Part shown: positions 30,878-51,301 of the stretch, in pieces | Layout of the letters: each line of letters starts with the position of its first letter | Position numbering within the stretch: the first letter of the stretch is position 1 | Program-made: the position numbers and the translations under genes | The notes under the pieces: model-generated | Told to the model about the DNA's origin: nothing | What the model saw: the letters and a program-made list of their open reading frames with translations, nothing else | The model's database searches: none | Source of the DNA: Vicinamibacterales bacterium | Lineage (GTDB): Bacteria > Acidobacteriota > Vicinamibacteria > Vicinamibacterales > UBA8438 | Assembly: GCA_965207615.1 (NCBI GenBank) | Contig: CBDBMZ010000003.1 | Coordinates: forward strand, 139,854 to 203,853 | Direction of reading: 5' to 3' | DNA length: 64,000 nt

Positions 30878-31064
30878 GGTCATTCCATAACAGCGCTAGC
30901 CCGGCGGCTACAGCCGTGTGCGGGACTACGTCCGGGCGGTTCGTCCCCGCGAGGCGCCCGAACCGGTGGTGCCGTTCGAGACGCCGGGGGGGCGTCAGGG
31001 CCAGGTTGACTTCGCGACGCTCACCCTGCCGTGCGGCCGCCGGCCCGCCCTGGTGGCCGGTTAG
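30878..31064 (+). pseudogene. IS21-family IstA transposase N-terminal fragment, frameshifted and truncated
   Basis: GHSITALARRL.. (HTH) then, in another frame, VRDYVRAVRPREAPEPVVPFETPGGRQGQVDFATLTL... IS21 IstA reads ..TVRRYL......VRFETQPGYQLQHDWGE... Confidence 0.6.
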
Positions 31065-31280
31065 GGTTAGGCCGGAAGCAAGCTTCCGGCCGCAACAAGG
31101 CGGCGGCCCGTTAGCTGAGTGGAAGGTCTTGCGAACGAGGAAACGCTCATATAGGGCACAGGCGGGGGGCGGTGTCGGAGATGCAATCGACCCCTCATGT
31201 GAACCTGGACCCCTTGCCCGTCGCCCCCGTCCACCCGGCCGCCTGTCGAAGACAGGCGGCCGGGACGGATGAATTTCGCG

Positions 31281-31830: not shown

Positions 31831-31839
31831 GGAAGCCGG

Positions 31840-32652: not shown

Positions 32653-33281
32653 CCAAGACCTCACCGCCTCGAACAGGCAGGGCATCCCCTCAACGAGTCG
32701 GCGGCGAGCTTCTGGCGCGCCGACGGTCTGCTCTCTCGTCATGAGTGGTCTTCGCTCCGCTGTGTCTTGCCGCGCCACCACCAGGCGACTCGGTGCCGCC
32801 GGCAACAGAATCCAAGGAACCATCGCAGGTGTCTCCGGACCGTACCGCACCGCCGCTGGCTCACAGCCCGGCTCAAGCTATCGCGCCCAAAAATCTGGCG
32901 ACATGACCGTACCACATCGTAGCGGCGCGGACCGAACCGGTCCCTCGGAGTCCGTCCGTGCCAGCCCCGCGGATGAAGGCGAAGCGCGAGCACCGGGTTC
33001 CACTCTGCCCGTGTCGACGCGCCCAACGTCGACGCCGCCGCGAGGCTCGCACTGTTCTTGTCACATCGACAGCCGGCCGTCCCCGCCTCCGGCCGGGACC
33101 TCCTTCGAGCCCGTCGTGATCACGCCGCCGCCCTGCGACCCGAGCGTGCCTCACCACGACCTCGACGACGAGGCCCAGATGCTGCCGGACTAGATTCCTT
33201 GAACAAGCGTGATCTTTACAGTTGAGTCAAGTTCGGGGCGGCCTCCATTTCGACAGCTTGGTTTTCTCGGTGATCGACGGT

Positions 33282-34883: not shown

Positions 34884-35217
34884 GGCCGGACTCCGGTCGA
34901 TGGGCTCCTCACCGGCCAGTCTACGGCCACCATCGCCCTTGTGCGACCATGAACGCGGCTTTCGGGCCGCAGCTGGAGCAGCGGCCGGGGTCCATCTTCA
35001 CCGTCGGAAGCTGCCCAGCCCTACATGCTCGTCGGTCTGAGGCGGAGCCTCGCTAGTACTTAGTAGACCAAGCCCGCCTCGGCGGGCGGGATCGTACACC
35101 GCAGGACACTTCCGCCAGCCGCGCCCGTACCAGCCGCGCCAGCCCAAGATATCGAGAGCCCGGATCGGGATACAATGTGCGCAAAGCGCGACCGGTTCAC
35201 GCATCGCCAAGGAGGGA

Positions 35218-35550
35218 ATGTTGGCAAGAGTCAAGAAGCTCACCGTGGCCATGACGAAGACGCAGCTGTTTTCGGATATCGCGGAGAACACGGCGTTGAC
35301 GAGGCGGCAGGTCGCGGATGTCTTCGAGGCGCTGGAATCGGTCATCGAGCGCCATGTCCGGAAAGGGGCCGTCGGCGTTTGCACGATACCCGGCCTGATG
35401 AAGATCAGGGTCGTGAAGAAGCCCGCGCAAAGGGCCCGGAAGAACGTGCCGAATCCGTTCCGGCCAGGTGAGACGATGGACGTGAAGGCCAAGCCGGCAA
35501 GCAACTCCGTGAAGGTCCAGCCGCTCAAGAAGCTGAAAGATATGGCGTAG
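35218..35550 (+). CDS. HU/IHF-family DNA-binding protein
   Basis: MTKTQLFSDIAENTALTRRQVADVFEALESVI..IPGLMKIRVVKKPAQRARKNVPNPFRPGETMDVKAKPASNSVKV is the HU fold signature. The canonical start would be the ATG at 35251. Confidence 0.8.
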   Translation: MLARVKKLTVAMTKTQLFSDIAENTALTRRQVADVFEALESVIERHVRKGAVGVCTIPGLMKIRVVKKPAQRARKNVPNPFRPGETMDVKAKPASNSVKVQPLKKLKDMA

Positions 35551-35916
35551 GTGTCGGCGGTACGGCTCGGCGTCCCGCTCGCGCTGCGTACTCCGGTTCG
35601 ACGCGCGCGTGACCGAGGTCAAGGCGCCTACGGCCTGACCGTCGACCGCCGGGTGCGGGACGCCCCGGCCCGCACCTTGGCGGGGTGCGAAGACACCGAG
35701 ATCGACATCATCGCGCCGGGCGCCGCCGCCGAGATCGCGTCGCCGTCGTCGCCCGCGGCCATCGGTACCGACGCGCTCGCGCTGCACGACGACAACGGGA
35801 ACGGCCGCACCAGCTGCGCCGAAGCGCGCCGCCACGGCATCGCGCCGGTGCCCCGAAACCACCCCGCGTACCGGTACATGCGGAACTGAGACGGCGACGG
35901 TGTTGTCTGCGAATGA
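35551..35916 (+). pseudogene. Excalibur (calcium-binding) domain protein with an in-frame TGA 9 codons before the native stop
   Basis: ..TSCAEARRHGIAPVPRNHPAYRYMRN-TGA-DGDGVVCE-TGA. Excalibur domains end ..CxxARAAGxAPIxxGxPGY...DRDGDGxxCE. The TGA at 35887-35889 sits where Arg (CGA) is expected. Confidence 0.5.
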
Positions 35917-36089
35917 AGCCCGCCGGTCCCGGACGGGAACCGAACCCCGCGGCCGAAGCGGCCGAATCCCGGAGAGGACGCCATGACCGACAGGACGACG
36001 AAAGCGCTGCTGGCCGCCATCGCTGTGGGACTATGGGCGAACATCGCGGGAGACTGGCTGAAGCCGGAACCGGTTCACGCCCAGGACAC

Positions 36090-36618
36090 GAGGACGCTCC
36101 GACCATCGGGCAATCGCTGCGGTCCGCGCACGTGCAAACGAGCGACGGGCCGGCGGCCACGATGGCCGCGGTCAACGCCGCCATCGTCCGCCGGGGGATA
36201 CAGGGGCGCTTCGTCACGCTCTTCCACGGCGTGCTCTTCCCCGATGGCAGGGTCACGTACTGCAATGCCGGTCACAACCCTCCCATCCTCGCGAGCAGCT
36301 CCGGCGTCCGCCGGCTCGAGACCGGCGGCATGGTGCTCGGCTTCTTCGAGGACGCGCCGTACGCGGAGGGTTCCCGTGACGCTCCTGCCGGACGACTACC
36401 TGGTGCTGTTCAGCGACGGGATCTCGGAGGCGATGAACGACGAGGAAGAAGAGTTCGGCGACGACGGGCTCGTCGGCTGCCTCGCCGGGGTCGCGGACGC
36501 CGAGGCCGACTCCCGCCTGCGCCACATCTTCGCCAGCGTGAAGCGGTTCACCGCCTCCGCCCCGCAGCACGATGACGTGACGGCCATGGTCGTGGCGTAT
36601 CGCTCGTCCGCGGCATGA
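36090..36618 (+). pseudogene. PP2C/SpoIIE-family phosphatase remnant: N-terminally truncated, 1 frameshift near 36365
   Basis: ..MAAVNAAIVRRGIQGRFVTLFHGVLFPDGRVTYCNAGHNPPILA..LETGGMVLGFFEDAPYAEG| then a frame change to |VTLLPDDYLVLFSDGISEAMN..FGDDGL..QHDDVTAMVVAYR. The N-terminal metal-binding Asp block is absent. Confidence 0.7.
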
Positions 36619-36969
36619 CGACGTGCGGCTCCCTCCGCCTCGGCGGCGATCGCCATCCCATGACCGTGGCGTACCGCTCGCTCGCGGCACCACGACCGAT
36701 GCCGCCACATGACCCGAACCTCGGTGACAGGCGTCGCCGGACGTCCGTTGGGTGACGGCGACCCCGACCCAGCGCAGCCCGAGGCCACGCGCGCATCTGC
36801 GTGCTTTCGACCCGTTGCTCTAGTCCGCTCCACGCGGCGGCACTTTTGCTTACCGAGAGGAGCAGTGCCACAATACACGGTGACCGAGGGGACGATGCAG
36901 AAGGCAACCACCGGAATGACCGGACCGTCGAATCTGTTGCACGGGCCGGCTGACTGACGGAGGAAGATC

Positions 36970-39642
36970 ATGCCCTTCGAGCAATGGCTCTACGCGTGGC
37001 GGGTCCGGCTGCGAATCCTGCTCGACCGCGACGCCGTCGACCGCGAGCTGGACGACGAGTTGCACCACCACGTCGCGCTCGAGACCGAGTCGCGGCGTGC
37101 GCAGGGAATCCTCCCGGCCGAGGCGCGCCGGCAGGCGCTCGCGACCCTGGGGGGGCTCGAGTCAACCCGCAACCACGTTCGCGAGGCGAGGTTCGGGGCC
37201 GCGCTCGAGCACGTGCTGCAGGACGTCCGCTACGTCCTGCGGGTCCTGCGCAGGAATCCGGGCTTCACCGCCACGACCGTCCTGACCCTGACCCTCGCGA
37301 TCAGCGCGACCACCGCCACCTTCTCGGTGGTCGACGCGGTGCTGCTGCAGCAGCCGCCCTTCCCCGACGCGGACCGTCTCGTCACGCTGTGGGAGACGGA
37401 CCCCGAGAACGGCAACCGGCCGACCGAGCCGGCCCCCGCGAACTTCCTGGACTGGCGCGACCAAGCGACCAACTTCGAGCACATCGCAGCCCTCGAACCG
37501 TGGTCGGTCGACCTCACGGGCACCGACACCCCCGAGGAGCTCTACGGGTGGCGGGCCACGGAGGGCTTCTTCGAGACGCTGGGCGCCGGCGCCGCCCTCG
37601 GCCGGACGTTTCTGCCCGACGAGCATCGCCCAGGCAGCGGCGTCGTCGTCCTGACGAACGCGCTGTGGCAGCGGCGCTTCGCCGGCGACCCCGGCATCGT
37701 CGGCCGCCCGCTGGTGCTGAACGGCGAGCCGCACGCGGTGGTGGGGGTGCTCGCCCCGAGCTTCGAGCTCCGCCTGGAGGGCCGTCGAAGCGACCGCGAT
37801 TTCTTCCTGCCCAAGGCCATCGCTGAGCATGAGACATCCAGGCGTAGCGGGGGCTGGTGGCAGGTGATCGGGCGGACCCGCCCGGACGTGTCGCTCGCGG
37901 AGGCGCAAGCCGAGATGGACGCGGTCGCGGGGCGGCTCGCCGCCGACCATCCGCGCACCAACACCGGCGTCGGGGCGCGCGTCATCCCTCTGCAGACGCG
38001 TCAGGTCGAGGCGGTGCGGCCGGTGCTGCTTCTGCTGTGGGGCGCGGTCGTCTTCGTCCTGCTCATCGCCTGCGTCAACGTCGCGAACCTCATGCTGGCG
38101 CGCTATGCCCGGCGCCAGCAGGAGTTCGCGGTCCGCGCCGCGGTGGGGGGCGGCCCCGCGCGCCTGCTCCGCCAGCTCCTGACCGAGAGCGTCGTCATCG
38201 CGGCCCTCGGCGGCATCGGCGGGCTCGTGGCGACGGCCTACGCCCTCGACCTGCTAGTGGCGCTCATGCCTGCCGACGTGCCCCGCCTCGCCCGGATCGC
38301 GGTGAACGGACGCGTCCTGGGGTTCACCGCCGGCCTCGTCGTCCTCACCGCCCTCGCCTTCGGCTGCGCGCCCGCGGTCCGGATACTCCGGCAGGACGCG
38401 AACGGCCCCCTCACCCGGGGGCAGCGCGCGGGCGACACCCCCGCTCAGCAGCGGCTGCGACGCATGCTGGTGGCGGCCGAGGTCGCCCTCGCCCTGGTGC
38501 TGCTGGTCGGGGCGGGCCTGCTCCTGCAGAGCTTCGTGCGGCTGGTCAACGTCGACCTCGGCTTCACCCCGCGGAACACCGCGGTGCTGCAGGTGTTCCA
38601 CTACGGCGACGGCGGCGCCGAGGCCACCCCCAACTTCTTCCGCGAGACCGTCGCCGGCATTCGCGCCCTCCCCGGCGTCGCCGCCGCCGGCGCCGTCTCG
38701 GCGTTCCCCCTCGCGCTCGCCGACATGAGCGCCGAGAGCCCCCTGACGCTGCTCGACCGGCCGCCGCCCCCGCCCGGCGAGGAGCCGTCGACGACCGTCT
38801 CGATGGTGACTCCGGGCTACTTCGACGCGATGCGGGTTCCGCTCCGGGCCGGGCGGTGGTTCGACGAGCGCGACGACGCCGAAGCGCCGGCCGTCGCCAT
38901 CGTCAACGAGACGCTGGCGCGACAGCACTGGCCTGACGGGAACCCCATCACGCGGCGGGTGACCGTGCAGCTCCAGGGGGGGCAGGCGTTCGAGGGGGAC
39001 TTCGAGGTGGAGATCGTCGGCGTCGTCGGGGCGGTGCGCCCGCGAGGCTTCGACAGCCCCCCGCGCCCGGAGGTGTTCATTCCCCACGCGCAGGCGCCGA
39101 ACGGCGCGATGACCTACGCCGTGCGGATCAACGGCGATCCCGCGGCCGGCATCCCGGCCATCCAGAGCGTGGTGTGGGACGCCGCGCCGCACCTCGCCTT
39201 CTACAGCGTCGCGATGGTCGAGCAGCTCCTGTCGGACACCCTCGCGGTGCGGCGGTTCACGACCGTGCTCCTTGCGCTGTTCGGTGCGGCGGCCCTCGCC
39301 CTCGCCGGCCTCGGCATCTACGGGGTCATCGCGGTGGCCACGGCCCAGCGGACCCGCGAGATCGGCCTGCGCCTCGCCATGGGGGCAGTGCCGCGCAATG
39401 TCGTGTGGATGGTCGTCCGCGGCGCCGTCGGTCTCGCCGGGGCCGGGGTCGCGGTCGGCCTGCTCGCATCGCTGCTGTTCTCGCAGATCCTCACCGGCCT
39501 GCTCTTCGACGTCGCCCCGTTCGACGCCCCGACGCTGGCCGCGGTGTCCCTGGTGCTGCTCGCCGTGGCCGCGGCCGCCGCCTGGTCCCCGGCGAGGCGC
39601 GCGAGCCGGGTGGACCCGCTCGTCGCGTTGCGCACGGAGTAG
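36970..39642 (+). CDS. ADOP-family duplicated FtsX/MacB-like ABC permease
   Basis: 890 aa. The prefix ..RLRILLDRDAVDRELDDELHHHVALETE..RRQALATLGGLESTRNHVRE.. and two FtsX-type 4-TM modules are typical of the acidobacterial duplicated orphan permease family. No adjacent PadR or ATPase gene. Confidence 0.85.
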   Translation: MPFEQWLYAWRVRLRILLDRDAVDRELDDELHHHVALETESRRAQGILPAEARRQALATLGGLESTRNHVREARFGAALEHVLQDVRYVLRVLRRNPGFTATTVLTLTLAISATTATFSVVDAVLLQQPPFPDADRLVTLWETDPENGNRPTEPAPANFLDWRDQATNFEHIAALEPWSVDLTGTDTPEELYGWRATEGFFETLGAGAALGRTFLPDEHRPGSGVVVLTNALWQRRFAGDPGIVGRPLVLNGEPHAVVGVLAPSFELRLEGRRSDRDFFLPKAIAEHETSRRSGGWWQVIGRTRPDVSLAEAQAEMDAVAGRLAADHPRTNTGVGARVIPLQTRQVEAVRPVLLLLWGAVVFVLLIACVNVANLMLARYARRQQEFAVRAAVGGGPARLLRQLLTESVVIAALGGIGGLVATAYALDLLVALMPADVPRLARIAVNGRVLGFTAGLVVLTALAFGCAPAVRILRQDANGPLTRGQRAGDTPAQQRLRRMLVAAEVALALVLLVGAGLLLQSFVRLVNVDLGFTPRNTAVLQVFHYGDGGAEATPNFFRETVAGIRALPGVAAAGAVSAFPLALADMSAESPLTLLDRPPPPPGEEPSTTVSMVTPGYFDAMRVPLRAGRWFDERDDAEAPAVAIVNETLARQHWPDGNPITRRVTVQLQGGQAFEGDFEVEIVGVVGAVRPRGFDSPPRPEVFIPHAQAPNGAMTYAVRINGDPAAGIPAIQSVVWDAAPHLAFYSVAMVEQLLSDTLAVRRFTTVLLALFGAAALALAGLGIYGVIAVATAQRTREIGLRLAMGAVPRNVVWMVVRGAVGLAGAGVAVGLLASLLFSQILTGLLFDVAPFDAPTLAAVSLVLLAVAAAAAWSPARRASRVDPLVALRTE

Positions 39643-40006
39643 GAGTCACCGCTGGCGGCCGCGTGCTGGTGCCCTAGCGCCGCGTCAGCGGCCCTCCCTC
39701 CCGCCTCGCCCCGTCGAGCGCCGCGGAGCGGGCAAGCCGTTCGAGCACGACGCCACGCATCCCCAGGGGCCCGGACGTCCCGCCGAGCCAGCCCGGAAGT
39801 CCGCCCCGGACGCGCAAGTGGCCGCCCGACGATTCCGGCGGGCGCAGGGGTGGAGCCCGTCGGCGGCGGGTTCGGCGTCGCGCAGCGGCGCGAGCATCCA
39901 ACTATATCGTCGCCGTTCCCGGGAGTGCGCGAGTTGGCTCGTTGCCAGCCCATGAGCCGATCGAAAGTTTTTTTACTTTTTTTCGGGAGTAGAACGCCGG
40001 CTCAGC

Positions 40007-40033
40007 ACGTCAGAACACGTCAGAAAACGTCAC
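40007..40033 (+). repeat. Three helically phased (10-bp spacing) direct repeats, ACGTCAGAA / ACGTCAGAA / ACGTCAC, in an AT-rich stretch
   Basis: agcACGTCAGAAcACGTCAGAAaACGTCACgcg, with starts at 40007, 40017 and 40027. It is preceded by gtttttttactttttttc at 39967-39984. Confidence 0.7.
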
Positions 40034-40210
40034 GCGTGTTCGTGCCCCCGTCCCATACCGTGCTACTGGTTCCCAGGGTGTCATGTAATAATAAACTATT
40101 GCTAAACAACAACTTACGTCGTTCTTGTGCTAGGCTCGACCGTCATGGTCCACGGCGAACCAACCACGTCGGTGCCGCCCGTCGGCGGGCCGCAACCACA
40201 GGAGGAAGAC

Positions 40211-40411
40211 ATGACGACGAGACTGCTCACGCTCCGCGACGTGATGGCGATGACCGCACTGTCGCGCTCGGCCATCTACGCGCTGATGGCCGAGTCCCGG
40301 TTCCCGAAGCCGATCCGGGTCGGCGCCCGCGCGGTCCGCTGGGTCGAGCAGGAAGTGGCCGACTTCATCGCCAGCCGGCCCCGCGCCGGCTCCGAGCACC
40401 CGGCCGCGTAG
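40211..40411 (+). CDS. alpA: AlpA-family transcriptional regulator/excisionase-like protein
   Basis: GGAGGA RBS. LLTLRDVMAMTALSRSAIYALMAESRFPKPIRVGARAVRWVEQEVADFI is the AlpA/MerR-type HTH signature. Confidence 0.85.
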   Translation: MTTRLLTLRDVMAMTALSRSAIYALMAESRFPKPIRVGARAVRWVEQEVADFIASRPRAGSEHPAA

Positions 40412-40603
40412 CCGAGACGACCTGCCCGACCGTCTGCAAAGGTCAGGCGGTCGGGCTTGGGCTGGGTGACACGGTCTTCCATCGTCCAGACCCAATGGCG
40501 CAAAGGCCGCCGACCTGATCGACCTCGATATCGAAACCGTTCCCACCGCCGCCTTGCAGCTCGGCGAGAGACGCACACCGTGACGGGCTTCGGGGCGGAC
40601 GGT

Positions 40604-41386
40604 ATGCTACCATCCGCGGCCGTGGCGCAGATCACGATACGGCAAGGGACTCCCTCGGAGGATGCCAACGTCCTCCGGGTCGAATCCTGGCAGACGACGT
40701 CTTTGGCCGCCGCGCTCGTTCTGGTCATCGTCGTTGCCGTCATGGTCCTGCGGAGGTGGGTCCGCGGCGGCCCGGAGCACTCTGCCAGCGCGCCTCGCCC
40801 TGCTGGCGGGGTGCTCCGGCTGATCGACAGTCCCGTCCGGGTGATGAGCTGGTGGGGGGCTGGCCCCCAGCGCATCGACTGGGCGATCCTCCCGGTGCTC
40901 GTCCACGCCGTCGCTTCGGCTCGGGTCTCTCTGGGCTTGGCGCTGCCTCCTGATGCGCCGATGGCCGCCGCGCTCTTCAGCCCCTTGATCCTCGCCGGTG
41001 CGTCTGCCGCTGCCGTGGCGGCCTTCGGTGCGCACGCCGTCGTCGTCGTGGTGCTCGATCTCCTCGCGGCTCCCTCGGGCCGGGCTCGGCGGTTGGTCGA
41101 GCTGTCAGCACTCGCGTACTGGTCGCAGGTTGCGTGGTCTGTCCCGGCCGCGTTGCTGGTGACGGGTGCCGGCGCGGTCGGTGACGATCTACGCGTGGTT
41201 CTCGACGCCACGCGGCAGCTGTGGGGCGTGTGGCTGATCGGCCTCCACGCCGCAGTCCTCTACGTCGTCACCGGCTTGTCGGTCGCCGGCGCCGTGGCGG
41301 CGGCGCTGATCATGCTCGCGGTCTTCTACGGGCTCCCGCCCCTCGTCGGCATGATCGGGTCTCAGCTCCTGACGCCCGTGCCCTGA
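40604..41386 (+). CDS. Multi-pass membrane protein (Yip1-like topology?), function unknown
   Basis: Five or more hydrophobic segments. It lies between alpA and int. The start is uncertain (ATG 40604, GTG 40580, or upstream). Confidence 0.5.
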   Translation: MLPSAAVAQITIRQGTPSEDANVLRVESWQTTSLAAALVLVIVVAVMVLRRWVRGGPEHSASAPRPAGGVLRLIDSPVRVMSWWGAGPQRIDWAILPVLVHAVASARVSLGLALPPDAPMAAALFSPLILAGASAAAVAAFGAHAVVVVVLDLLAAPSGRARRLVELSALAYWSQVAWSVPAALLVTGAGAVGDDLRVVLDATRQLWGVWLIGLHAAVLYVVTGLSVAGAVAAALIMLAVFYGLPPLVGMIGSQLLTPVP

Positions 41387-41409
41387 CGCCGCGGGCCGGC
41401 TGTGGCGCC

Positions 41410-42552
41410 TTACTCCTTCTCGACGACGTACTCGGCCCAAGCGTCCATCAGCATGCGACGCTTCGCGAGGAGGTCGCCGCGACGGTACGCCCGCTCGACC
41501 GCGGAGCCCACCGCATGGGCCAGCGCCGTTTCGACGACGGCGAAGTCGTGGGCCGTCTCCTCCGATGCCCAATCGCGGAACGAGGAGCGGAAGCCGTGGA
41601 TCGTGCCGGCGATGCCCTGCACCGTCCGGGTCAGCCCCATCTGCGACAGGGCGCGGCCGGTGCGCTCGGAGGCGAACACGAACCCCCGCTTGTGCAACCC
41701 GCTTCGCTCGTCGAGGATCGCCAAAGCCGGGTCGCTCAGCGGCACGACGTGCGCCCGCTTGCTCTTCATGCGTTCGGCGGGTAGCGTCCAGGTCCTGCCG
41801 CCCAAGTCGATCTCGTCCCACAGCGCCCCCCGAGCCTCAGCCGACCGGGTGGCGGTCAGGACCAGAAAGGCGGCGCAGGCACGAGCGGAATCCGCGGCGT
41901 GACTGCCGAGAATGTTGCGGTACGCACTCGGAACATCGCGGTAAGGGACCGCTTCGTGGTGCCGCCTGACGCGCTCCTGGACCGGGAGAGCCGCCTTGAT
42001 GCCGCCGTTGGCGGCGACGTTCTCGGAGACGTGGCCATGGGCGAGGCACCAGTCGAAGATGGCGCGTACTCGCTGGAGCGCCTTCCGGCTCTCGGCCGGC
42101 TTCGAGGTCCAGACGGGCTTGAGCACGCCGATGATATCCTGGCGGCTGATGGCGTTCACGCGATGCTGGCCGAGCACCCTGAGGACGTTGCAGCCCCGAA
42201 GCGGCTGCATGAACGCTCGGGCGCTGCTCTCGGACCACCGCCCGCGATTGGCCGCCAACGTCGCCTCGGCGGCGTCGCGGAACAGCGGCTTGACGTTGTG
42301 GGGAGCGGTGAAGGGATCACGGCCGTCGAGCCGGGCCGCCCGGCGGTTGGCCGACGCGATGGCCCGCGCCTCGGCGAGCGTCCGCAGGGGCCATCCACCG
42401 AGGCCGCGGTCGACGCGCTTGCCGTTGACGGTGAGCCGCTGCACGAACGCCCGGGAGCCGGAGGGCTGCACGACGACGAACAGGGTCTTGCAGTCCGAGT
42501 CCCCGTGGCGGCCTGCCTGCAACGTCCCGATCCGCCTCTGGGTCAGCTTCAT
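41410..42552 (-). CDS. int: Tyrosine site-specific integrase, P4-type (DUF4102 N-terminal domain), intact
   Basis: N-terminus MKLTQRRIGTLQAG..KTLFVVVQPSGSRAFVQRLTVNGKRVDRGLGGWP. Catalytic blocks LTATRSAEARGALWDEIDL, AHVVPLS, IHGFRSSFRDWASE, LAHAVGSAVERAYRRGD. Confidence 0.9.
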   Translation of the reverse strand: MKLTQRRIGTLQAGRHGDSDCKTLFVVVQPSGSRAFVQRLTVNGKRVDRGLGGWPLRTLAEARAIASANRRAARLDGRDPFTAPHNVKPLFRDAAEATLAANRGRWSESSARAFMQPLRGCNVLRVLGQHRVNAISRQDIIGVLKPVWTSKPAESRKALQRVRAIFDWCLAHGHVSENVAANGGIKAALPVQERVRRHHEAVPYRDVPSAYRNILGSHAADSARACAAFLVLTATRSAEARGALWDEIDLGGRTWTLPAERMKSKRAHVVPLSDPALAILDERSGLHKRGFVFASERTGRALSQMGLTRTVQGIAGTIHGFRSSFRDWASEETAHDFAVVETALAHAVGSAVERAYRRGDLLAKRRMLMDAWAEYVVEKE

Positions 42553-42723
42553 CGCACCCTCCCACGCCCAGTGTCATCCACGAACTATACCACGTTTTGG
42601 TTACGGTTTCAGCGCGATTCCTGTGGACGCGCACGGATTGATCGGGACGCGGAAATCGCCACAAGTAACAGAAAATGCTTGCTTTAGGTGGACAGCATGG
42701 GAGTATCTCGGACCTCCAGCGAC

Positions 42724-42737
42724 ACTACACGTGTAGT
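42724..42737. other. Perfect 14-bp palindrome ACTACACGTGTAGT at the island/chromosome junction; candidate att or recombinase site
   Basis: It lies 172 nt from the int start codon and about 2 nt before homology to the PQQ-dehydrogenase paralogue begins. Confidence 0.4.
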
Positions 42738-42738
42738 T

Positions 42739-43567
42739 CGCCTGGTACTATCAGCACCTGAACGACCACTGGGACCTCGACCATCCCTTCGAGCGCCTGC
42801 TCGTCGACACCGCGGTCGCCCCGGACGCCGCCGCCGTCGACTGGATCAATCCCGGCGTGCAGCCGGGCGAGACGCGCCGGGTCATCACCGGCATCCCCGG
42901 GAAGACCGGCGTCGTCTACACGCTGGACCGCGAGACCGGCGAGTTCCTCTGGGCCAGGCCCACCATCACCCAGAACGTCATCAGCCACATCGACGGCGCG
43001 TCGGGCGCGGTGACCGAGAACCCCGAGCTCATCTTCACCGGGGCGGGGCAGCAGGTGCTCACCTGCCCCCACGCCAGCGGCGGCAAGGACTGGGAGGCGG
43101 GCGCCTACAGCCCCCTCACCAACACCATGTACATGCCGCTGCGCAACGTCTGCGCGCAGATGATCGCCGAGGGCCCCGAGAGCACCTCGATCTACGCCAT
43201 CAACTGGCGCCCCGAGATCGCGCCGGGCACCGACCAGGTCGGCGCGGTCTGGGCCGTCTCGGCCGAGACCGGCGAGACCGCCTGGGTCCACGAGCAGCGC
43301 GCCGCCACCATGTCGCTGGTCACCACCGGCGGCGGCCTCGTCTTCGGCGGCGACGTCAACGGCCGCTTCCGCGCCTTCGACCAGGAGACCGGCGAGGTGC
43401 TCTGGGAGGTCAACCTCGGCTCGTCGGTGTCGGGCTTCCCCATCACCTACGCGGTCGACGGCCGGCAGTACGTGGCGGTGAGCACGGGCACGCCGCGGTT
43501 CATCAACCTCACCCCCGAGCTGAGCCCCAGCCAGGGGAACAATCTGTTCGTCTTCGCGCTGCCCTGA
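42739..43567 (+). pseudogene. 5'-truncated PQQ-dependent dehydrogenase (C-terminal ~275 aa only)
   Basis: WYYQHLNDHWDLDHPFERLLVDTAV...GNNLFVFALP* is collinear with, and highly similar to, residues from ~307 to the end of the intact gene at 59376-61118. An in-frame TAG lies at 42734-42736 just upstream. The first possible start is the GTG at 42857. Confidence 0.85.
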
Positions 43568-43655
43568 TTCGGGAGGCCCACGGTCACCGGACGTGGCGTC
43601 TGATGCGCGGCCTACTCGTCGAAGAAACTGCCGCGGGACCTGAAGGAACGTCGTC

Positions 43656-44558
43656 GTGGAAGCACCGGGTGAGGACGTTGTCGTTCGCAGCGTCGAGTCC
43701 GTGCTGGAAGGCGGGCCGGCGAAGCTCACGTCCTGTCCCAACTGCGGATCGGGCCGCGTCGAGAACTTCTGCCCGTCGTGCGGCCAACGCGCCGGAGACC
43801 TTCATACGTCGGTCTTCACGTTCGCGCGGGAGATGCTGGACGGCCTCTTCTCGTTCGACTCACGCGTGTGGCGCACGCTCATCGTTCTCCTGCTTCGGCC
43901 CGGCGATCTGACGCTGGAGTACTGGCGCGGAAGGCGCGCGCGTTTCGTGGCGCCGTTGCGGCTCTACCTGTTCGTCAGCTTCTGCGTGTTTCTCTTCCTG
44001 GCGGTCGTCGCGCCGCAGGGCGTCATCGACACTTCAGGCGAGGAGTCCGACGCGATGGTGCAGATCGGGCTCGACGAGGATGCTCCCGCCGACCTCGACG
44101 ACCTCGGCGCGGACTCTCCGCCTGTCGAGCGTTGGTTCGTGCAGCGCGTCCTGCGGCCGATGATCGAGGAGCCGGAACGCGCCGGGGCCCTCTTCCTCCA
44201 GCGACTGCCCTGGGCGTTCTTCTTTCTCGTTCCGGCGTTCGCGGCGCAGCTTCGGCTGCTGTACCGCCGGCAGGAGCGGTTCTTCGTTCCGCACCTCGTC
44301 TTTGCCCTTCATTTCCAGACGGCTGCGTTCCTGCTCTACACCGCCGGCATCGCTGTCGACGCGATCTCCGGCACGGAAGCGGCCTCCTCGCTCGCGGGGC
44401 TGGTTCTCCTCGCGTTTCTGTTTCTGTCGCTCCGCCGCGCGTACCGGCAGGGTTTCCTGATGACCCTCGCCAAGCAGGCCGGGCTCCTGTTCGTGCACTC
44501 GATCGTGATTATGGTGGCGATGCTCCTGTTGCTGGTCGTCACGGGGTTGACCGCATAG
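43656..44558 (+). CDS. DUF3667-family zinc-ribbon membrane protein
   Basis: CPNCGSGRVENFCPSCGQR, then ..FDSRVWRTLIVLLLRPGDLTLEYWRGRRARFVAPLRLYLFVSF.. and several TM segments. Confidence 0.75.
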   Translation: MEAPGEDVVVRSVESVLEGGPAKLTSCPNCGSGRVENFCPSCGQRAGDLHTSVFTFAREMLDGLFSFDSRVWRTLIVLLLRPGDLTLEYWRGRRARFVAPLRLYLFVSFCVFLFLAVVAPQGVIDTSGEESDAMVQIGLDEDAPADLDDLGADSPPVERWFVQRVLRPMIEEPERAGALFLQRLPWAFFFLVPAFAAQLRLLYRRQERFFVPHLVFALHFQTAAFLLYTAGIAVDAISGTEAASSLAGLVLLAFLFLSLRRAYRQGFLMTLAKQAGLLFVHSIVIMVAMLLLLVVTGLTA

Positions 44559-44728
44559 CGGTGCGGGAAGAACGGCGGTTGGATCCGGTCTCCCGGAGCT
44601 GCGAAAGCCGCAACTGCGGTGCGCGGTCCGCGCTTGGTTCGGGGAGAAGTGGTCGCCCTGGCCGCGGTGGCCGTTCCGTGGGCCAAGGAGGCGGCCGGCG
44701 GTCTGTCCCGGAGGCGTCTTCCGCCGAC

Positions 44729-45196
44729 TCAGTAGTTCGTGTGACCCGGCAGTCGCTGCCAGCTGGCGAACACCTCCAGGGCCCCGTCGCACGGAAGGTG
44801 CACCATCGGCAGCGCCCGCTCCGCCAACGGCTTCGCCAGCTCCTCGTAGATGAACTCGTCGCGGAACTCGATGCCGGCGGCGTCGTGCCGGCCGATCGAG
44901 AAGTACACCCGGCCGATGCGCGACCAGTAGATGGCGCCCAGGCACATCGGGCACGGCTCGCAACTGGCGTAGATCTCGCAACCCGACAGGTCGTAGGTTC
45001 CCAGTGCACGGCACGCGTTCCTGATGGCGACGACCTCGGCATGGGCGGTCGGGTCTTTCGAGCTCAGGACTTCGTTCCAGCCTTCGCCGACGACGGCGCC
45101 GCCCCGCACGATCACGGCGCCGAACGGTCCGCCGTGCCCCGACTCCATGCCCCTGCGGGACAACTCCACGGCCCGCTTCATGTACGCTTCGTGCAT
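44729..45196 (-). CDS. CDA-fold nucleoside/guanine deaminase
   Basis: ..DPTAHAEVVAIRNA.. (HAE) and ..CEPCPMCLGAIYWS.. (PCxxC) zinc ligands. 155 aa from the Met at 45196. Confidence 0.85.
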   Translation of the reverse strand: MHEAYMKRAVELSRRGMESGHGGPFGAVIVRGGAVVGEGWNEVLSSKDPTAHAEVVAIRNACRALGTYDLSGCEIYASCEPCPMCLGAIYWSRIGRVYFSIGRHDAAGIEFRDEFIYEELAKPLAERALPMVHLPCDGALEVFASWQRLPGHTNY

Positions 45197-45486
45197 CGGT
45201 GTCCAATCCGGCCACCGCCCGTTCCCGGGCGGCCGTGGGGCAGCGTGCCCTCGAACGTGCATTCTATGCCGTACGGCGTCGGCGCCACGTCCGGGGCTGC
45301 GATTGTCGTCTCGCGCGGGCGGCGCGAGGAGCGACGACGTTCGGGGAAGGCACACGGCTGGCCCTGTGGAGCCGCCGAGGAGCCCGCCTGACCAGGCGCG
45401 ACGAGGGAGAGTACCGGGCGTGTTCGGCCGAGGAGCAACGCAACCAGGCGGGAAGCATCGCCGCTCGAATGCGGCGGCACCCTTCA

Positions 45487-46704
45487 CTACGGGCTCCCAG
45501 GATCGCCGATCCGGAACGGCACCACGGCGCCGCGGGCGCGCTCGGCGCCCCGGGCCTCGGCCGCGTCGACCTCGAACGCCCGCCCGATGCGGTTGCCGGC
45601 GACGTCCTCGAGGGTTGGCGCCGCGACGAGTCGATGCTCGCCCGGCCGCCACGGCGCGCGCGGCGTGAAGGTCCAGCGCGTCTCGCCCTGCTCCACCCGG
45701 ATGTCCCCGGCCAGCGGCCGGCCGCCGGCGTCCGCCACGTGGAGCGCGCGCTGCAGCAGGCCGTAGTCGAGTGATACCGGAAAGCGCACCAGGAGAGGGT
45801 CCCGTGTGTCGTGGGCCGGGAGATCGAGCTGCCAGCTGTCGGGAGCGAGGGCGCGCTCCCGGGGCGGACCCACCCGGAACTCCCGTCGGAACGGCGCGAC
45901 GAGCGGCTGGCCCGCCGCGTCGCGCCAGGCGACGTCGATCACCAGCGTGTACCTGCGGTCCGCCGACAGCGGGCGGCCGAGCTCGGCGTTCGGCAGGATG
46001 CCGCGCTTGACGCGCCCCGGGTCGTAGAGAACCGTGTAGCGCGTGCGGTCCGCGTTCCACAGGTCGACGTCCAACGGCAGGAACGGGTCGGCGACCGGCT
46101 GGCCGCGCTCGTCGAGCAGTCGGACGTGCGCGCCGCCCGCGCCCAGCCCCATCGGCGCCGAGAAGAGGACGTACAGGCGGAGATGGTTCTCCGGCACCTC
46201 GGGGCCGGTGGGGTAGACGGCGACCACGCGGGTCGACGGCGCGCGGTCGGGCGCCGGTACCTCGACCGTCGCGCGGAGGGCGCGCGGCGGGGTGGGCGCG
46301 GAACCGCCGCGCGCGGACGGGAGGGACGACGGATCGAAGACCACCTCGTAGCGTTGACCCGCATCGAACGGAAACCGCGGGGTGAAGCGCAGTGCGCCGG
46401 CTTGCACGGCATAGTCGCCGAGGACCGGCGGCAGCTCCGCGGGGACCGGATCCGCCTGCGCAACCTGGACGCGCAGGATGGCCTGCCACGCGTCGGGCGA
46501 CGGGGCGGAGCGCTCGAGGTGCGCGAGGTCCGCGGCCGCCAGCCCCGCGACGTCGACGGTGCGCTGCCCGGAGGGCGAGGTGACCAATTGGATACGCGGC
46601 GCGCCGGGACCGGGTTCCGGCCCCCGGCTGCTCGAGGGCGAGCACGCGTGCGCGAACGCGAGGGCCGCCGCCACCACGGCGGCGGCCCTCGCCGCATGTC
46701 TCAT
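45487..46704 (-). CDS. Hypothetical lipoprotein (~405 aa)
   Basis: MRHAARAAAVVAALAFAHAC lipobox. Beta-rich body. Only the C-terminal half of track ORF 45487..47964 is in a sensible frame. Confidence 0.6.
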   Translation of the reverse strand: MRHAARAAAVVAAALAFAHACSPSSSRGPEPGPGAPRIQLVTSPSGQRTVDVAGLAAADLAHLERSAPSPDAWQAILRVQVAQADPVPAELPPVLGDYAVQAGALRFTPRFPFDAGQRYEVVFDPSSLPSARGGSAPTPPRALRATVEVPAPDRAPSTRVVAVYPTGPEVPENHLRLYVLFSAPMGLGAGGAHVRLLDERGQPVADPFLPLDVDLWNADRTRYTVLYDPGRVKRGILPNAELGRPLSADRRYTLVIDVAWRDAAGQPLVAPFRREFRVGPPRERALAPDSWQLDLPAHDTRDPLLVRFPVSLDYGLLQRALHVADAGGRPLAGDIRVEQGETRWTFTPRAPWRPGEHRLVAAPTLEDVAGNRIGRAFEVDAAEARGAERARGAVVPFRIGDPGSP

Positions 46705-46718
46705 CGGAATGCAGGCGC

Positions 46719-47876
46719 CTACGGCAGCGCGACCGCTTCGAGGTCCAGCCCGCCGCCCGCGGCGTCGACGAGCAGCATCGCCCGGGAGGCATCCAGCCGA
46801 TCGAGCTGCCGCACGCCTTCGAGCGACGCGATGGTCTCGAACGGCACGCCGGCCGTATCGGGGATCGGATCCGCGATGGCGTCCGCGGCGCCGAACGGCT
46901 CCGTCGGTACCTTCATCACGCCGCGCTGGTTGTTCGACAGCAGGATGTAGTCCTGCCCGTCCTTCTCGTAGACGATCATGTCGATGGGCCGGTTGCGGTT
47001 GCCGAACTCGGCGATCGTCGTCCCCTGGATCTTGCTGCCCGGCTCGAGGGCCGCGATGGGGAACTTGACGAGCGGCGTGCACAGGTAGCTGGCGACGATA
47101 GACGGCTCGCCGTCTATCTCGTACGGCACGAACGTGAACACGGGCGAGAAGGTTTCGAGCTGGCCGTGGGAGCCGTGGTAGATCTCGACGCTCGTCCCCG
47201 CGTCCGCCACCCGGAACGGGTAGGGGATGACGCGCATCTTCGACGCGAACTCCTCGTTCGACAGGCCCGAGACGAAGAGGTTGCCGTCGATGAAGGCCAT
47301 GTGGGTGATGGTCTGCACGCCGATCAGCCCCGCGGGGTCGACCTGGTCGGGATAGTTGGCGATTGGCACCTCCCGCCCGCCCGCGAGCACCAGCGGAGTC
47401 TCGGCCGGCGGCGGATTGGGCACCCCGATGCGCGAGTAGCGGACCTCGTCGAGCGAGACGACCTCGATCTCGCCCGCGCCGTCCACGCGCAGGAGGACCG
47501 GCACGGCGCCGTCGCCGAGCCCGCGCATCACCGAGAGCCAGGTGTTGCGCGTCCGCGGGTCGACCACCATGTCGGTGATCAGCAGGTTGCCGGCGTCGAT
47601 GCCGAGCAGCGCGGCGACCTTCCGATCGATCGCGGGCACGTCCCGCGTCCCCGGCGTCCCGCCGGCCATCTCCCCGCCGAGATGCAGGGCGGTGATGGAC
47701 ACTTCCTGGGCGTCGGCCGCGAAGAGCACGCCTTCGGGCCCGAACGCCAGCTTGCCGATGTACTGGAACTCGGGCGCGACGCCGGTCGTCGCCTCCGAGT
47801 TGGCCGCCGGCCGGGCTCCGGCGACGGCCAGGCTCCCGACGATGACGAGCAACAGGCCGAAACGAATTCTGGACAT
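46719..47876 (-). CDS. Secreted hypothetical protein, beta-propeller-like
   Basis: Signal MSRIRFGLLLVIVGSLAVAGA. No named motif. It ends 14 nt upstream of the next gene. Confidence 0.6.
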   Translation of the reverse strand: MSRIRFGLLLVIVGSLAVAGARPAANSEATTGVAPEFQYIGKLAFGPEGVLFAADAQEVSITALHLGGEMAGGTPGTRDVPAIDRKVAALLGIDAGNLLITDMVVDPRTRNTWLSVMRGLGDGAVPVLLRVDGAGEIEVVSLDEVRYSRIGVPNPPPAETPLVLAGGREVPIANYPDQVDPAGLIGVQTITHMAFIDGNLFVSGLSNEEFASKMRVIPYPFRVADAGTSVEIYHGSHGQLETFSPVFTFVPYEIDGEPSIVASYLCTPLVKFPIAALEPGSKIQGTTIAEFGNRNRPIDMIVYEKDGQDYILLSNNQRGVMKVPTEPFGAADAIADPIPDTAGVPFETIASLEGVRQLDRLDASRAMLLVDAAGGGLDLEAVALP

Positions 47877-48023
47877 GCGGGTCTCCTTCCAGCGCACACG
47901 ATACCGGTTTGACCAGTCCCCGGCACGGCCAGGGAGGGAACGGATCGAAGCGACGAGTCTCCACGGGCGCCGCGACGGCCGCCCTTCACTCGCCAGGGGG
48001 CCGCGACGGCCGCCCTTCGCGCG

Positions 48024-50027
48024 TCAGGGCGCCGCGATGGCCGCGCGCCACGCGGCGGCGGCAGACGCCTTGAGCGTCTCGGCGTCGGCGGGCAGCAGGT
48101 ACCCCTCGGCGACCAGCGCGTCCGCCGCCTCGCCGTAGCTCGCCACGTACTCCGCCTCGCCGCCGGGGTAGCGCTCTTCCAGGGAGAGCCGCGAATCGCC
48201 CGACGCCGTCCGCTCGTCCCGCGTCCGTGGGAACGGAATCGTGGAGCCGTTCACGCCGCACAGGTCGCCTTGGGCGAAGCCCGCCGCGCGGACCGCCTTG
48301 CCCATGGTGGAGAGCGGGGCAGCGACCTCCGGCACGATGACCCCGGCCACGATGTTGCCGTCGGCGTCGAGGCCCGGCACGAACAGCGGGTACCGCTCGT
48401 CGCTCTCCTTCGGCGGCCAGACCGAGAAGTCGCGCACGCCGAGGGTGCTGATCGTGTCGTTGTAGGGACGGTCCGGGATGGTCGGATACTGCTCGCCCTG
48501 CCGTTCGACCGTCACCGCGGTGCCGTCGGCCACCGAGGGCGCGCGTGTCGCCGGCGGCTCGACGCCGTCCCGCACCCACCGCACCGTCGCGTCGAACGCG
48601 GCCCGGTAGTACGGCCACGGCAGCACCGGGTTGGCGGGGTCGCGGCACCCGGCGTCGCCCTGCAGGTGCGCGGTCCCGAGCATCCAGTAGCGCACGTTCG
48701 GCGGCAGCTCCAGCGCCCGGCCCCTCGTGTCGGTGACGATGAGCGAGGCATGGGCGCCGTAGTACTCGGAGTCGGCGTCCACCTGGATGATGCGGGGGCA
48801 CGTGTCCGAGGCGGTGCAGGCGGCCAGCAGCCCGTCGGTGCGGCCCGTCAGCGGATCGGTGGTCGTCGCGAAGGTGAACGGGAACTCGTCCATCGGGTAG
48901 TTGTGGTCCTCGTGCTGGCGCGTGTAGCGGCCCGTCTGCGCGAAACGGGCGTTGACCCACGTGAGGCGCGCGCCCGCCACGTACGGCGTCATGCCGTCGA
49001 AGACGCGCCGCCCCGCCGGGTCCTCGTTGAAGCCCTTGTAGAGGAAGTCCCTGATCATCCGGCCGCTCTGCGAGGAGCCGACGGCCACCGCGTGCTCGAG
49101 CACCGGCATGCCGTCCACGAAGAGCGGGTTGGCGACGCCCCGATCATCGGCGGGACGGTAGCGCGCGAACGACACGAGATCGCGCATGCCGCTGAAGCCC
49201 AGGCCGTGGACGATCGGATCCCGGGCCTCGTACACGAACTCGTAGATGGTTCCCGCGTCGGTGCCCGCGGGCGGCGTGACCGCGACCGTCGTGTCGTCGA
49301 CGTAGCGCCACGCGTCGGCCGGAAGGTTCTGGCGCGGATCGTCCTGGAGCTGGCGGTGCGTGAGGGTCGCGGCGCTCTCGTCGAGCGTCGCCGCCGGGTA
49401 GGTCAGCCGCCCGAACGCGGGGCTGTCCGGGTTCTGCCACTCCTCCATCGAGGCGCCGGTAATCGTCCGGCCGTCGTCGGTGGCGAGCGGGAAGGTCGCC
49501 AGCACCGGGCGCGGGTCGCCGGCCCCCGGCGCGCCGTGCAGCCAGCCGCTCGAGACGTACGTGTAGCCCTGGTTCATGAGGAACGCGCTGCCGGCGTTCC
49601 CGGCCGCGTAGCCCCGCCCCGCCTCGTGGAAGTAGCCGAAGACGATGTTGCGGCCGCGGTTGTTGACCTCGTACGCGAGGACGCCGTTGCCCCGGGTGAT
49701 GTCGACCGGCTTGAGGATGTCGACCTCGAAGGTGTACTCGACCAGACCGTCCGCGTTGCGCGGGGCGTTCTCGAGATCCGCGATCCCGGCGTCGCGGGGG
49801 GCGTCCGGATCGGCGACGGCGGTGGCCGTCCCGAGCAGAATCTCGTACGCGCCCACGGCGCCGAACGACCGGCCGCCGAAGGCGGGCTCGCGGCTCGTGA
49901 TGTCGAGCCGGGTGACGCGCGAACCGGCGAGGGCCGGCGAGGCGGATTCCTGCGCCTCGGCGACGCCCTGAAGCCCGCCCAGTCCCATCCCTAGTACGAC
50001 CGTCAACAGTTGGCGTCGGAACCGCAT
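48024..50027 (-). CDS. Secreted protein of the large 'alpha/beta hydrolase domain' family
   Basis: Signal MRFRRQLLTVVLGMGLGGLQGVAEA. VTRLDITSREPAFGGRSFGAVGAYEIL..GLVEYTFEVDILKPVD..GNGVLAYEVNNRG is the characteristic N-terminal block of this family, as I recall it. Confidence 0.65.
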   Translation of the reverse strand: MRFRRQLLTVVLGMGLGGLQGVAEAQESASPALAGSRVTRLDITSREPAFGGRSFGAVGAYEILLGTATAVADPDAPRDAGIADLENAPRNADGLVEYTFEVDILKPVDITRGNGVLAYEVNNRGRNIVFGYFHEAGRGYAAGNAGSAFLMNQGYTYVSSGWLHGAPGAGDPRPVLATFPLATDDGRTITGASMEEWQNPDSPAFGRLTYPAATLDESAATLTHRQLQDDPRQNLPADAWRYVDDTTVAVTPPAGTDAGTIYEFVYEARDPIVHGLGFSGMRDLVSFARYRPADDRGVANPLFVDGMPVLEHAVAVGSSQSGRMIRDFLYKGFNEDPAGRRVFDGMTPYVAGARLTWVNARFAQTGRYTRQHEDHNYPMDEFPFTFATTTDPLTGRTDGLLAACTASDTCPRIIQVDADSEYYGAHASLIVTDTRGRALELPPNVRYWMLGTAHLQGDAGCRDPANPVLPWPYYRAAFDATVRWVRDGVEPPATRAPSVADGTAVTVERQGEQYPTIPDRPYNDTISTLGVRDFSVWPPKESDERYPLFVPGLDADGNIVAGVIVPEVAAPLSTMGKAVRAAGFAQGDLCGVNGSTIPFPRTRDERTASGDSRLSLEERYPGGEAEYVASYGEAADALVAEGYLLPADAETLKASAAAAWRAAIAAP

Positions 50028-50443
50028 CGCTCACCTCCGGGCGCATGATACAGCCTGCCGTCATCGACCGCCAGCGACGAGAGCGGGCCGCGAGCGCCGG
50101 ACGCTCATCGCCCCGAGCGGGTCGATCGTGCCCCGAGTCTCGCGTCGGTGCTCGAGCACGTCCTGGCCCGGAGAGCGTCGACTACGGCTCCGCTCGCCGC
50201 CCAACCAACCCTGCTGGGCGTCTGCACCGGGCCACGGCGCAGACTCCCGGGGCCCGGTGAAGGCGCCACCGGGGCCAACCCGGGAAACGGCTTGTCGGAC
50301 CGCGGGGGGGCCTTCGTCGAGCGGCCCCACGGCTCCCCTTCGTGGTTGCCAAGGCCACCGCGGGGTGATAGCGTGAGCCGCCGCGGCGCGGACGATCCGG
50401 TTCGGCGCGTCGTGAACGAAGGTGTGGCAGCAAGGAGGACACG

Positions 50444-51301
50444 ATGGTGGATCCGACCAGACGCACGATACTCAAGACGGGCGCGGCGGCGACGGTCCTG
50501 GCCGCCACGCGGGGGCTTGCGGGACAGACCGGCCAGGACGGAGCGGCCATGTCCTTCTACGAGAGGGGGCCCGTCCGCATCCGCTACGAGGAGGCCGGCT
50601 CCGGCTTCCCGCTGCTCGTCATCGCCGGCGGGGGACTGAACTCGTCGATCGCCGGGCTGGCCACGCATCCCTTCAACCCGCTGGAGGATCTCAAGGAAGA
50701 GCACCGCGTCATCGCCGCCGACCTGCGCAACTCCAACCGCGGCCAGTCCTCCGGCCCGGTCGAGATCGATCGGCCGTGGGATTCGCATACCGACGACCAT
50801 CTCGGCCTGATGGATCACCTGGGCATCGAGAGGTTCATGGTGCTCGGCTTCTGCATCGGCGGCCCCTTCATCTGGAACCTGCTGCGGCGGGCCCCCGACC
50901 GCGTCGTCGCCGCCGTGCTGGCGCAGCCCAGCGCGTATAGCGCGGATCATCCCACCCTGTTCTACGACAACAACATGGGAAGTTGGGGGCCGGATCTCGT
51001 CGCGCGCCGTCCCGAGATCACGATGGACATGGTCGACCGGTTCCTGACCAGGATGTACCTCGCCAACGCGGACTTCGTCTTCACCGTGACCCGGGACTTC
51101 GTGCGCGAGCTGCAGACGCCGATCCTCATCCTGCCTGACGACATCCCGGCGCACCCGTACGACGTCGCCATCGAGGCCGCGATGCTCGCGCCGAAGTCCG
51201 AGCTGAGCCTGTTCCCGTGGAAGCGGCCCGAGGAACGGATTCCGCTCGCGGTGCGCCAGATACGGTCCTTCCTCCGGGCGCATCGGCCGGCGGCCGGGTA
51301 G
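50444..51301 (+). CDS. Alpha/beta-fold hydrolase with Cys at the nucleophile elbow (G-F-C-I-G-G), Tat-like signal
   Basis: AAGGAGG RBS. RRTILKTGAAATVLAA. The elbow GFCIGG is at codons 135-140, with TGC at 50852-50854. Confidence 0.8.
   Translation: MVDPTRRTILKTGAAATVLAATRGLAGQTGQDGAAMSFYERGPVRIRYEEAGSGFPLLVIAGGGLNSSIAGLATHPFNPLEDLKEEHRVIAADLRNSNRGQSSGPVEIDRPWDSHTDDHLGLMDHLGIERFMVLGFCIGGPFIWNLLRRAPDRVVAAVLAQPSAYSADHPTLFYDNNMGSWGPDLVARRPEITMDMVDRFLTRMYLANADFVFTVTRDFVRELQTPILILPDDIPAHPYDVAIEAAMLAPKSELSLFPWKRPEERIPLAVRQIRSFLRAHRPAAG

Follow-up and report, generated by a model that had tools for sequence, protein, structure and literature searches.

Positions 42700-43567 of the 64,000-nucleotide stretch of Vicinamibacterales DNA analysed here (the window) are very probably an attR site, the right junction of an integrated genomic island of ~52 kb that we read as an integrative mobilizable element. 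A P4-type integrase lies immediately to the left of the junction, and the 3′ part of a PQQ-type dehydrogenase gene lies to the right. The features on which the analysis draws are as follows; other contigs are given by their L numbers.

1-42737: right-hand 42.7 kb of the integrated element (compared with L085/L086 at the left and L001/L002 at the right)
1520-6192, plus strand: MobA/MobL (MOBQ-type) relaxase with a long repetitive C-terminal part (Pfam MobA_MobL, 36.2 bits; cut-off 26.7)
40211-40411, plus strand: AlpA-family small DNA-binding protein (Pfam Phage_AlpA, E 2.6e-18; a 66-aa gene in L001 and L002)
41410-42552, minus strand: intact P4-type tyrosine integrase of 380 aa (Pfam), transcribed away from the junction
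42553-42737: P arm of the att site, the 185-bp region upstream of the integrase, conserved in 13 of 13 junctions
42578-42582 (CCACG) and 42587-42596 (ATACCACGTT): candidate arm-type sites
42724-42737: perfect palindrome ACTACACGTGTAGT that closes the element, with the conserved terminus GTAG(T) as its final bases
42738-42750, plus strand: 13-bp core or direct repeat TCGCCTGGTACTA of attR, common to attL, attR, and attB
42743-43567, plus strand: orphan 3′ part (aa 308-580) of the PQQ-type dehydrogenase target (tblastn; Pfam PQQ and PQQ_2)
43568-51291: chromosomal right flank (45499-51291 is syntenic with L082 10295-16137, at ~91%)
60292-60304, plus strand: free attB core TCCGCTGGTACTA, located within the intact paralogue (59376-61118) by pattern search

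The interrupted gene and its empty site

When the intact 580-aa protein encoded at 59376-61118 was compared with the window (tblastn), its residues 308-580 were matched at 42743-43564 (73% amino acid identity, E 3.6e-126); no counterpart of residues 1-307 was found left of the junction, and in the window only two other full paralogues, both to the right, matched this part. An earlier note on this DNA had described an abrupt start of homology and the loss of the first ~306 residues, and both are borne out, with W now placed at residue 308. The position of the breakpoint, which the note had put at ~42739-42742, required correction: identity begins at 42742 when the fragment is compared with the DNA of the intact paralogue (87%) and at 42738 when the true orthologue, from a different assembly, is used instead; the crossover segment spans 42738-42750. 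The fragment frame reads ...ATLHV-stop-FAWYYQHLNDHWDLD... and closes with a stop codon at 43565-43567; the in-frame TAG (42734-42736) and the palindrome (42724-42737) are both where they had been reported. The orphan part has no start codon or promoter of its own, and it contains neither a stop nor a frameshift. No island boundary is visible in base composition, no second copy of the junction sequence occurs in the window, and an exact-protein look-up of the DUF3667 neighbour gave no record.

The intact paralogue scores 317.6 bits against the methanol/ethanol PQQ dehydrogenase model TIGR03075 (cut-off 480) and 243 against the acido-empty-quinoprotein model TIGR04528 (cut-off 650), and it clearly passes Pfam PQQ (207 bits). 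Because both NCBIfam cut-offs are missed and that of Pfam PQQ is reached, the safe name for the target is "PQQ-type propeller dehydrogenase-like."

The protein closest to the window fragment (P0001, on contig L082) belongs to an orthologue with 96% amino acid identity to it. In L082 this gene runs uninterrupted through the site, with 94.5% nucleotide identity to window 42738-43563, no integrase, and downstream synteny that extends over window 45499-51291; the empty site that the earlier note had proposed seeking in related genomes therefore exists. The L082 DNA that precedes the target gene has no counterpart in the window. The L082 orthologue is split by a frameshift around residue 184-236 (4879-5493 and 5345-6529), and many close dehydrogenase homologues among the database proteins are likewise truncated, at differing positions; indel errors in long-read assemblies are a likely cause of both.

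Proteins of the attL type were sought with the N-terminal 312 residues as query, and many proteins of ~306-336 aa that end in ...GEI(A/V/R)WY-stop were retrieved. One of them, P0177 (L083), corresponds to the 5′ half of the gene orthologous to the window target (92.6% nucleotide identity to L082 4630-5715); it ends in ...GAGATCGCCTGGTACTAG followed by non-gene DNA, the core being succeeded by a G and the left end of the element. L083 thus carries the 5′ half together with the direct repeat, the pair that had been named as a further check: the same 13 bases, and then the element end. A second contig, L084, holds the 5′ half of a neighboring paralogue, which ends in the core and ~115-150 bp of conserved left end. 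A clean end for the 5′ half is provided by the left end of the element, which places a TAG immediately behind ...TGG TAC; this is the case in 12 of 13 type-1 attL proteins, the remaining one being a read-through, and among the 120 nearest N-terminal protein clusters, 12 (plus the one read-through) end exactly in ...WY-stop.

The core was defined by a three-way comparison of attB (L082 5703-5715), attL (L083 and L085), and attR (window). TCGCCTGGTACTA is identical to L082 5703-5715 and comprises the only bases common to the L083 attL and the window attR; a 13-bp segment is shared in this way among attB, attL, and attR across three target genes, with further attB pairs formed by window 60292 and L013 (attR) and by L082 3332 and L084 (attL). 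The attL and attR sequences together reconstitute attB, and the core lies within the open reading frame, so precise excision would restore the gene. The core consensus, TC-NN-CTGGTACTA, encodes I-x-W-Y in the conserved WYYQHLNDHWDLD motif of PQQ-type dehydrogenase genes, and its two variable bases track the codon of the target (GCC, CGC, or GTC); as core positions 3-4 match the target in attL and attR alike, the points of strand exchange are not placeable. The target CTGGTACTACCAG itself is a 6+1+6 palindrome (read from the sequence).

The core pattern occurs twice in the window, at attR and at the free attB (0.03 occurrences expected), and is absent from the distant paralogue at 53473-55227. 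In L013 an orthologue of the intact paralogue (94% amino acid identity) is cut exactly at the point corresponding to 60292-60304 by the same integrase family.

Two other features were observed in this part of the window. Just past the intact dehydrogenase gene is a stretch of low G+C content (61119-62080; 0.57 versus ~0.70) with a 238-aa ORF (61246-61962); the equivalent gap in L013 is only ~150 bp, so ~800 bp look inserted in the window. At 57859-57954, three tandem 24-bp repeats give AAGPLGTS units in the N-terminal part of the 57827-59131 product.

The earlier note had left open whether an element inserted into the gene or a deletion reached up to it; the empty site in L082 and the attL half in L083 show insertion, and the deletion alternative falls away. 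The window itself has a single junction and no 5′ half, as would be seen if the dehydrogenase gene had been truncated by an old deletion and the integrase lay beside it by chance, with no site-specific integration. Against such a history, which we regard as scarcely credible, 12 other contigs, with different paralogues, have their breakpoint at exactly the same base, the 13-bp core is common to attB, attL, and attR for three genes, and an attL exists for this very type of element (L085/L086).

Site-specific insertion also appears to be recent. Comparison of the orphan fragment with the uninterrupted orthologue gave dN 0.018 and dS 0.198 (dN/dS 0.09); nearly all of the divergence thus accumulated under selection, which makes the interruption recent when set against the separation of the two strains. 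The presence of near-identical elements in different paralogues likewise indicates recent movement.

A conserved integrase module in many dehydrogenase genes

The integrase matches Arm-DNA-bind_3 (PF13356, 36.9 bits), Phage_int_M (PF22022, 50.3), and Phage_integrase (PF00589, 47.2), all above their cut-offs, and inspection of the translation by eye indicated that the catalytic R, K, HxxR, H, and Y are kept (TATR, MKSKR, HGFRSSFR, LAHAVG, and ERAYRR). The three domains and the catalytic residues agree with its original description as an intact P4-type integrase directed away from the junction. Against the NCBIfam model of enterobacterial P4-like integrases, PRK09692, it scores 111.6 bits (cut-off 434); it is a distant relative of that group, outside the narrow model.

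An exact-protein look-up placed an identical integrase on two other contigs, L001 and L002, which align with window 29547-42737 at 97-99.7% DNA identity and each adjoin a different dehydrogenase gene. The window, L001, and L002 therefore represent three target genes with three downstream flanks; their fragments are 72-73% identical at the amino acid level and their integrases 100%. A scan of one genome per species identified eleven further loci (L003-L014; L012 is the same place as L001), with integrases 91-98% identical to that of the window; they are contigs of metagenome-assembled genomes (MAGs) of Vicinamibacterales or Acidobacteria, a few of which are probably mis-binned. Wherever a locus extends far enough, a dehydrogenase 3′ fragment is found ~190 bp upstream of the integrase start. 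On 12 contigs besides the window the fragments all begin at residue 306-308, and at least nine different paralogues are represented. No tRNA gene was found near the junction in the window, and the recurrence of the integrase at the same dehydrogenase codon elsewhere upholds the proposal that a protein-coding gene, instead of a tRNA, had been the target.

Several genomes have two copies; the 6.6-Mb contig CBDEVO010000003.1 has two, inverted and 667 kb apart. Many paralogues with the same motif are present in these Vicinamibacterales genomes, which thus offer many possible landing sites. The junction is present in 13 assemblies from different projects, and a common assembly artefact is an unlikely source of what they share.

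The dehydrogenase fragment could in principle be cargo or a homology arm of the element, with the true boundary further right, and a first blastn comparison of the window with L001/L002 did extend through the fragment to ~43498. That extension reflects paralogue similarity, as shown by the 72-73% of the fragments against the 100% of the integrases; moreover, from 42738 onwards the sequence is 94.5% identical to the L082 orthologue, which is contiguous there with syntenic chromosome. Across all loci the integrases are 91-100% identical and the fragments 45-99%, so the fragments derive from the targets and not from the element, and a boundary further right is hardly conceivable.

The boundary at the core is accompanied by two conserved arms. 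The right arm, from the integrase ATG to the core (42553-42737), can be aligned across all 13 junctions and has the terminus ...CGTGTAG(T); the left arm is conserved over ~115-150 bp in four attL sites, beyond which the cargo differs. To the left of the integrase stop codon, related elements differ immediately, with the exceptions of L001, L002, L012, and, in part, L003. Integrase and att site are thus a conserved module with variable cargo. The only words of at least seven bases shared without change by the 13 P arms and the 4 P′ arms come from ATACCACGTT, which has the same orientation in both arms and is accompanied in each by a second CCACG 12 bp away. These repeats are candidate arm-type sites for the N-terminal domain of the integrase.

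The weight that the earlier note had placed on the 14-bp palindrome is not supported. The window has 17 perfect 14-bp palindromes, compared with 12.3 in shuffled sequences, and among the 13 related junctions ACTACACGTGTAGT is perfect only in the window, L001, and L002; it was rejected as a conserved recombinase site, being neither conserved nor statistically unusual, and is a lineage-specific variant of the element terminus.

A different origin of the junctions, by homologous recombination or misassembly between paralogues, or by integrase-driven shuffling or inversion that makes chimeric genes, would draw on the many paralogues with near-identical motif DNA, on the inverted copies in the 6.6-Mb contig, which could mediate inversions, and on one sample whose contigs break inside the element. 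It is nevertheless very unlikely, since the two sides of the junction are not paralogous (an element arm meets a gene), the left and right arms are each conserved and distinct from one another, and the integrase faces no 5′ half in any locus; secondary rearrangements between copies may have taken place but are not needed as an explanation.

Under simple insertion, the integrase would recombine the 13-bp core with an attP built from the two conserved ends of the element, with a predicted form of ...CACGTGTAGT-TCGCCTGGTACTA-GGTGAAAATCG..., and its N-terminal arm-binding domain would bind the repeated (A/T)xCCACG motifs. Insertion splits the gene into a 5′ half that ends two codons past W by means of the element's TAG and a 3′ half (42743-43567) that is left startless beside the integrase. 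The AlpA protein is a candidate regulator of excision and of the integrase, judging from its family; it may control or direct excision, in which case the gene would be rejoined precisely, and the MOBQ relaxase may allow the excised circle to use the conjugation machinery of another element. A search for the excised circle with an attP-specific pattern in JGI metagenomes, a collection that seems poor in these organisms, gave four unrelated chance matches.

This is a well-defined pairing of an integrase and att sites whose target, the inside of an enzyme gene present in many copies, is unusual; with the core, the two arms, and a candidate motif for the arm sites mapped, it can be tested directly. 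It also means that many "short" PQQ dehydrogenase genes (~270-335 aa) in metagenome-derived protein sets are halves left by insertion. A family of paralogues allows one family of islands several places on the chromosome, which bears on genome rearrangement and on the metabolic repertoire of uncultured Vicinamibacterales.

Extent and gene content of the element

The earlier note had set the accessory DNA at no less than 42.7 kb with its left end outside the window, and rightly so. A 176-aa protein (803-1333) is also encoded on contigs L085 and L086, which are 99% identical to window 1-11332 and reach an attL 8.94 kb beyond window position 1. In L085 the dehydrogenase 5′ half at this attL reads ...ATCGCCTGGTACTAG, directly followed by GTGAAAATCGAG; L086 has ...ATCGTCTGG... 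there. With this extension the full element measures ~51.7 kb, an inferred span from about -8943 to 42737 in window coordinates; the attL of the window's own genome is presumably of the same kind, to judge by these 99%-identical copies in other assemblies. L085 and L002 come from the same sample, and both break off within the element, near window 20-21 kb and beside IS-type genes, and thus probably represent opposite ends of a single copy. The conserved left end is absent from the window and from the 10 kb around any related integrase (blastn-short and nhmmer); all of the elements are thus longer than 10 kb.

The relaxase falls below the cut-off of the NCBIfam MobQ model (E 1.6e-10). It is a single ORF of 1557-1558 aa in L085 and L086; alignment with these indicates a 1-nt deletion in a G run near 2065 of the window, which splits the frame and is either real or a homopolymer sequencing error. 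The relaxase ORF also has an internal tandem duplication of ~1.1 kb (e.g., 2833-3132 versus 3937-4236, 87%).

The cargo includes an SDR, a Uma2 nuclease, a Nudix protein, an MpaB/Lcp-type oxygenase, two P450s, an RND efflux pump with adaptor and outer-membrane partner, an IS110 transposase, and an esterase. The element also encodes HU, a SpoIIE-type phosphatase, a MacB-type permease, and a 268-aa protein with no assigned function; its left 9 kb, seen in L085, adds a second MacB-type permease, a sigma factor, and TPR and bactofilin proteins.

On the minus strand at 31287-31587 is an integrase remnant that corresponds to aa 230-324 of the intact integrase (40-63% identity) and suggests the earlier accretion of a second element. 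ARAGORN reported a "tRNA-???" at 31577-31667 (91 nt, anticodon undetermined), which overlaps the upstream edge of the remnant; it was considered as a target and set aside as probably spurious. A 1.86-kb insertion at 33194-35052, missing from L001 and L002, has CTAG duplicated at its flanks and a single 533-aa ORF (33282-34883, minus strand) that reaches the threshold of no Pfam family; it probably represents an insertion sequence outside the classified ones. Together, the frameshifted relaxase and the two IS-type insertions, in addition to the integrase remnant, indicate that this copy may be decaying and losing its mobility.

A size of ~52 kb would also suit a prophage or a self-transmissible integrative and conjugative element, and several ORFs have no family assignment. 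No capsid, terminase, tail, VirB4, coupling-protein, or other type IV secretion family was found among the scanned ORFs or the L085 genes, however, and a MOBQ-type relaxase is present, so that either of these identities is improbable. As no virion or type IV secretion family was found, the island is named an integrative mobilizable element, with the qualification that several ORFs are without family. The att sites of such an element are all represented: attR in the window, attL in L085/L086 for the element and in L083 for the target gene, and attB in L082.

Other element lineages and comparison with known systems

Integrases less closely related to that of the window also adjoin dehydrogenase genes. 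In L093 (3747-5100) a 47%-identical integrase occupies the same WYYQ site in an equivalent arrangement, with an arm motif, TTTACCACGG, that is similar; in this contig gene-like sequence reaches about five codons further left (TGENV versus TGEIV). A second element family has its core ~10 bp downstream, around CAGCACCTGAACG (L088 6001-8383 and L087 5900-6855). Its attL proteins end in ...WYYQHLNG and a tail of ~15 aa, its attR proteins start with x, then QHLNDHW, and its 440-aa P4-like integrase (40% identical to that of the window) lies directly after the 5′ half, at the attL end; this type accounts for 10 of the 120 nearest N-terminal protein clusters. In a Vicinamibacterales MAG (L015, ~9745-10001), a 45%-identical integrase adjoins a dehydrogenase gene cut at residue ~58, at WGYSPLDQ. 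These several insertion points and integrases make the dehydrogenase family a recurrent target of several element lineages.

Another cut was noted in L083 (4129-9726), where a paralogue beside the orthologue of the window target is cut at residue ~442, near GGKDWEAGAYSP, and has ahead of it the genes of RepA_C, a RepB-type primase, and an HTH/S24-peptidase protein; this region is probably the end of yet another element.

More speculatively, the dehydrogenase paralogues of these host-associated Acidobacteria might constitute a multi-site landing pad, on which at least four lineages independently evolved to insert (at motifs around aa ~58, 306-309, 310-315, and ~442), with reversible insertion switching paralogues off and on. 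We consider this extension doubtful; if it were true, it would amount to "regulated gene integrity" at the level of the population, with a family of metabolic genes and not a single regulator as its object.

Islands of the P4 and CP4-57 type carry Arm-DNA-bind_3 or DUF4102 integrases together with AlpA and usually reside in tRNA or tmRNA genes. The element described here resembles them in the three-domain architecture of its integrase, in the proximity of AlpA, in the position of the integrase at the extreme end of the island beside att, and in the arms on either side of a short core. It differs from them in its target, the middle of a protein-coding gene instead of a tRNA. The tRNA or tmRNA target of Islander-type islands is likewise lacking at this junction, where the target is protein-coding; and in contrast to both types the target is not regenerated, since an element-borne TAG ends the 5′ half.

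Elements that split genes and give rise to "regulated gene integrity" include skin in sigK and SPbeta in spsM of B. subtilis, and phi10403S in comK of Listeria. As in these, the core lies within an ORF and precise excision would restore the gene; unlike these, the present element is not a prophage, as far as annotation goes, and its target is one of many paralogues and not a unique regulator.

A search of the literature for quinoprotein, attB, and integrase found no published precedent for quinoprotein or PQQ genes as integration sites. Closest in behavior are integrase clades that specialize in a protein-coding gene: those of the dusA-specific islands (Farrugia et al. 2015; PMC4482086) and of the SGI1-type integrative mobilizable elements in trmE or dusA (PMC8409611). 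As far as the abstracts of these two papers describe them, they share with the element a tyrosine-integrase clade that recognizes a conserved coding stretch, variable cargo, and, for some of them, a mobilizable rather than conjugative nature; their site is either the 5′ or the 3′ end of a housekeeping gene present in single copy, whereas here the site is codon 306-309 of ~580, the gene is inactivated, and a multi-copy paralogue family offers many sites per genome. A tyrosine-integrase island in a protein-coding gene is a kind of element already known; the target is new.
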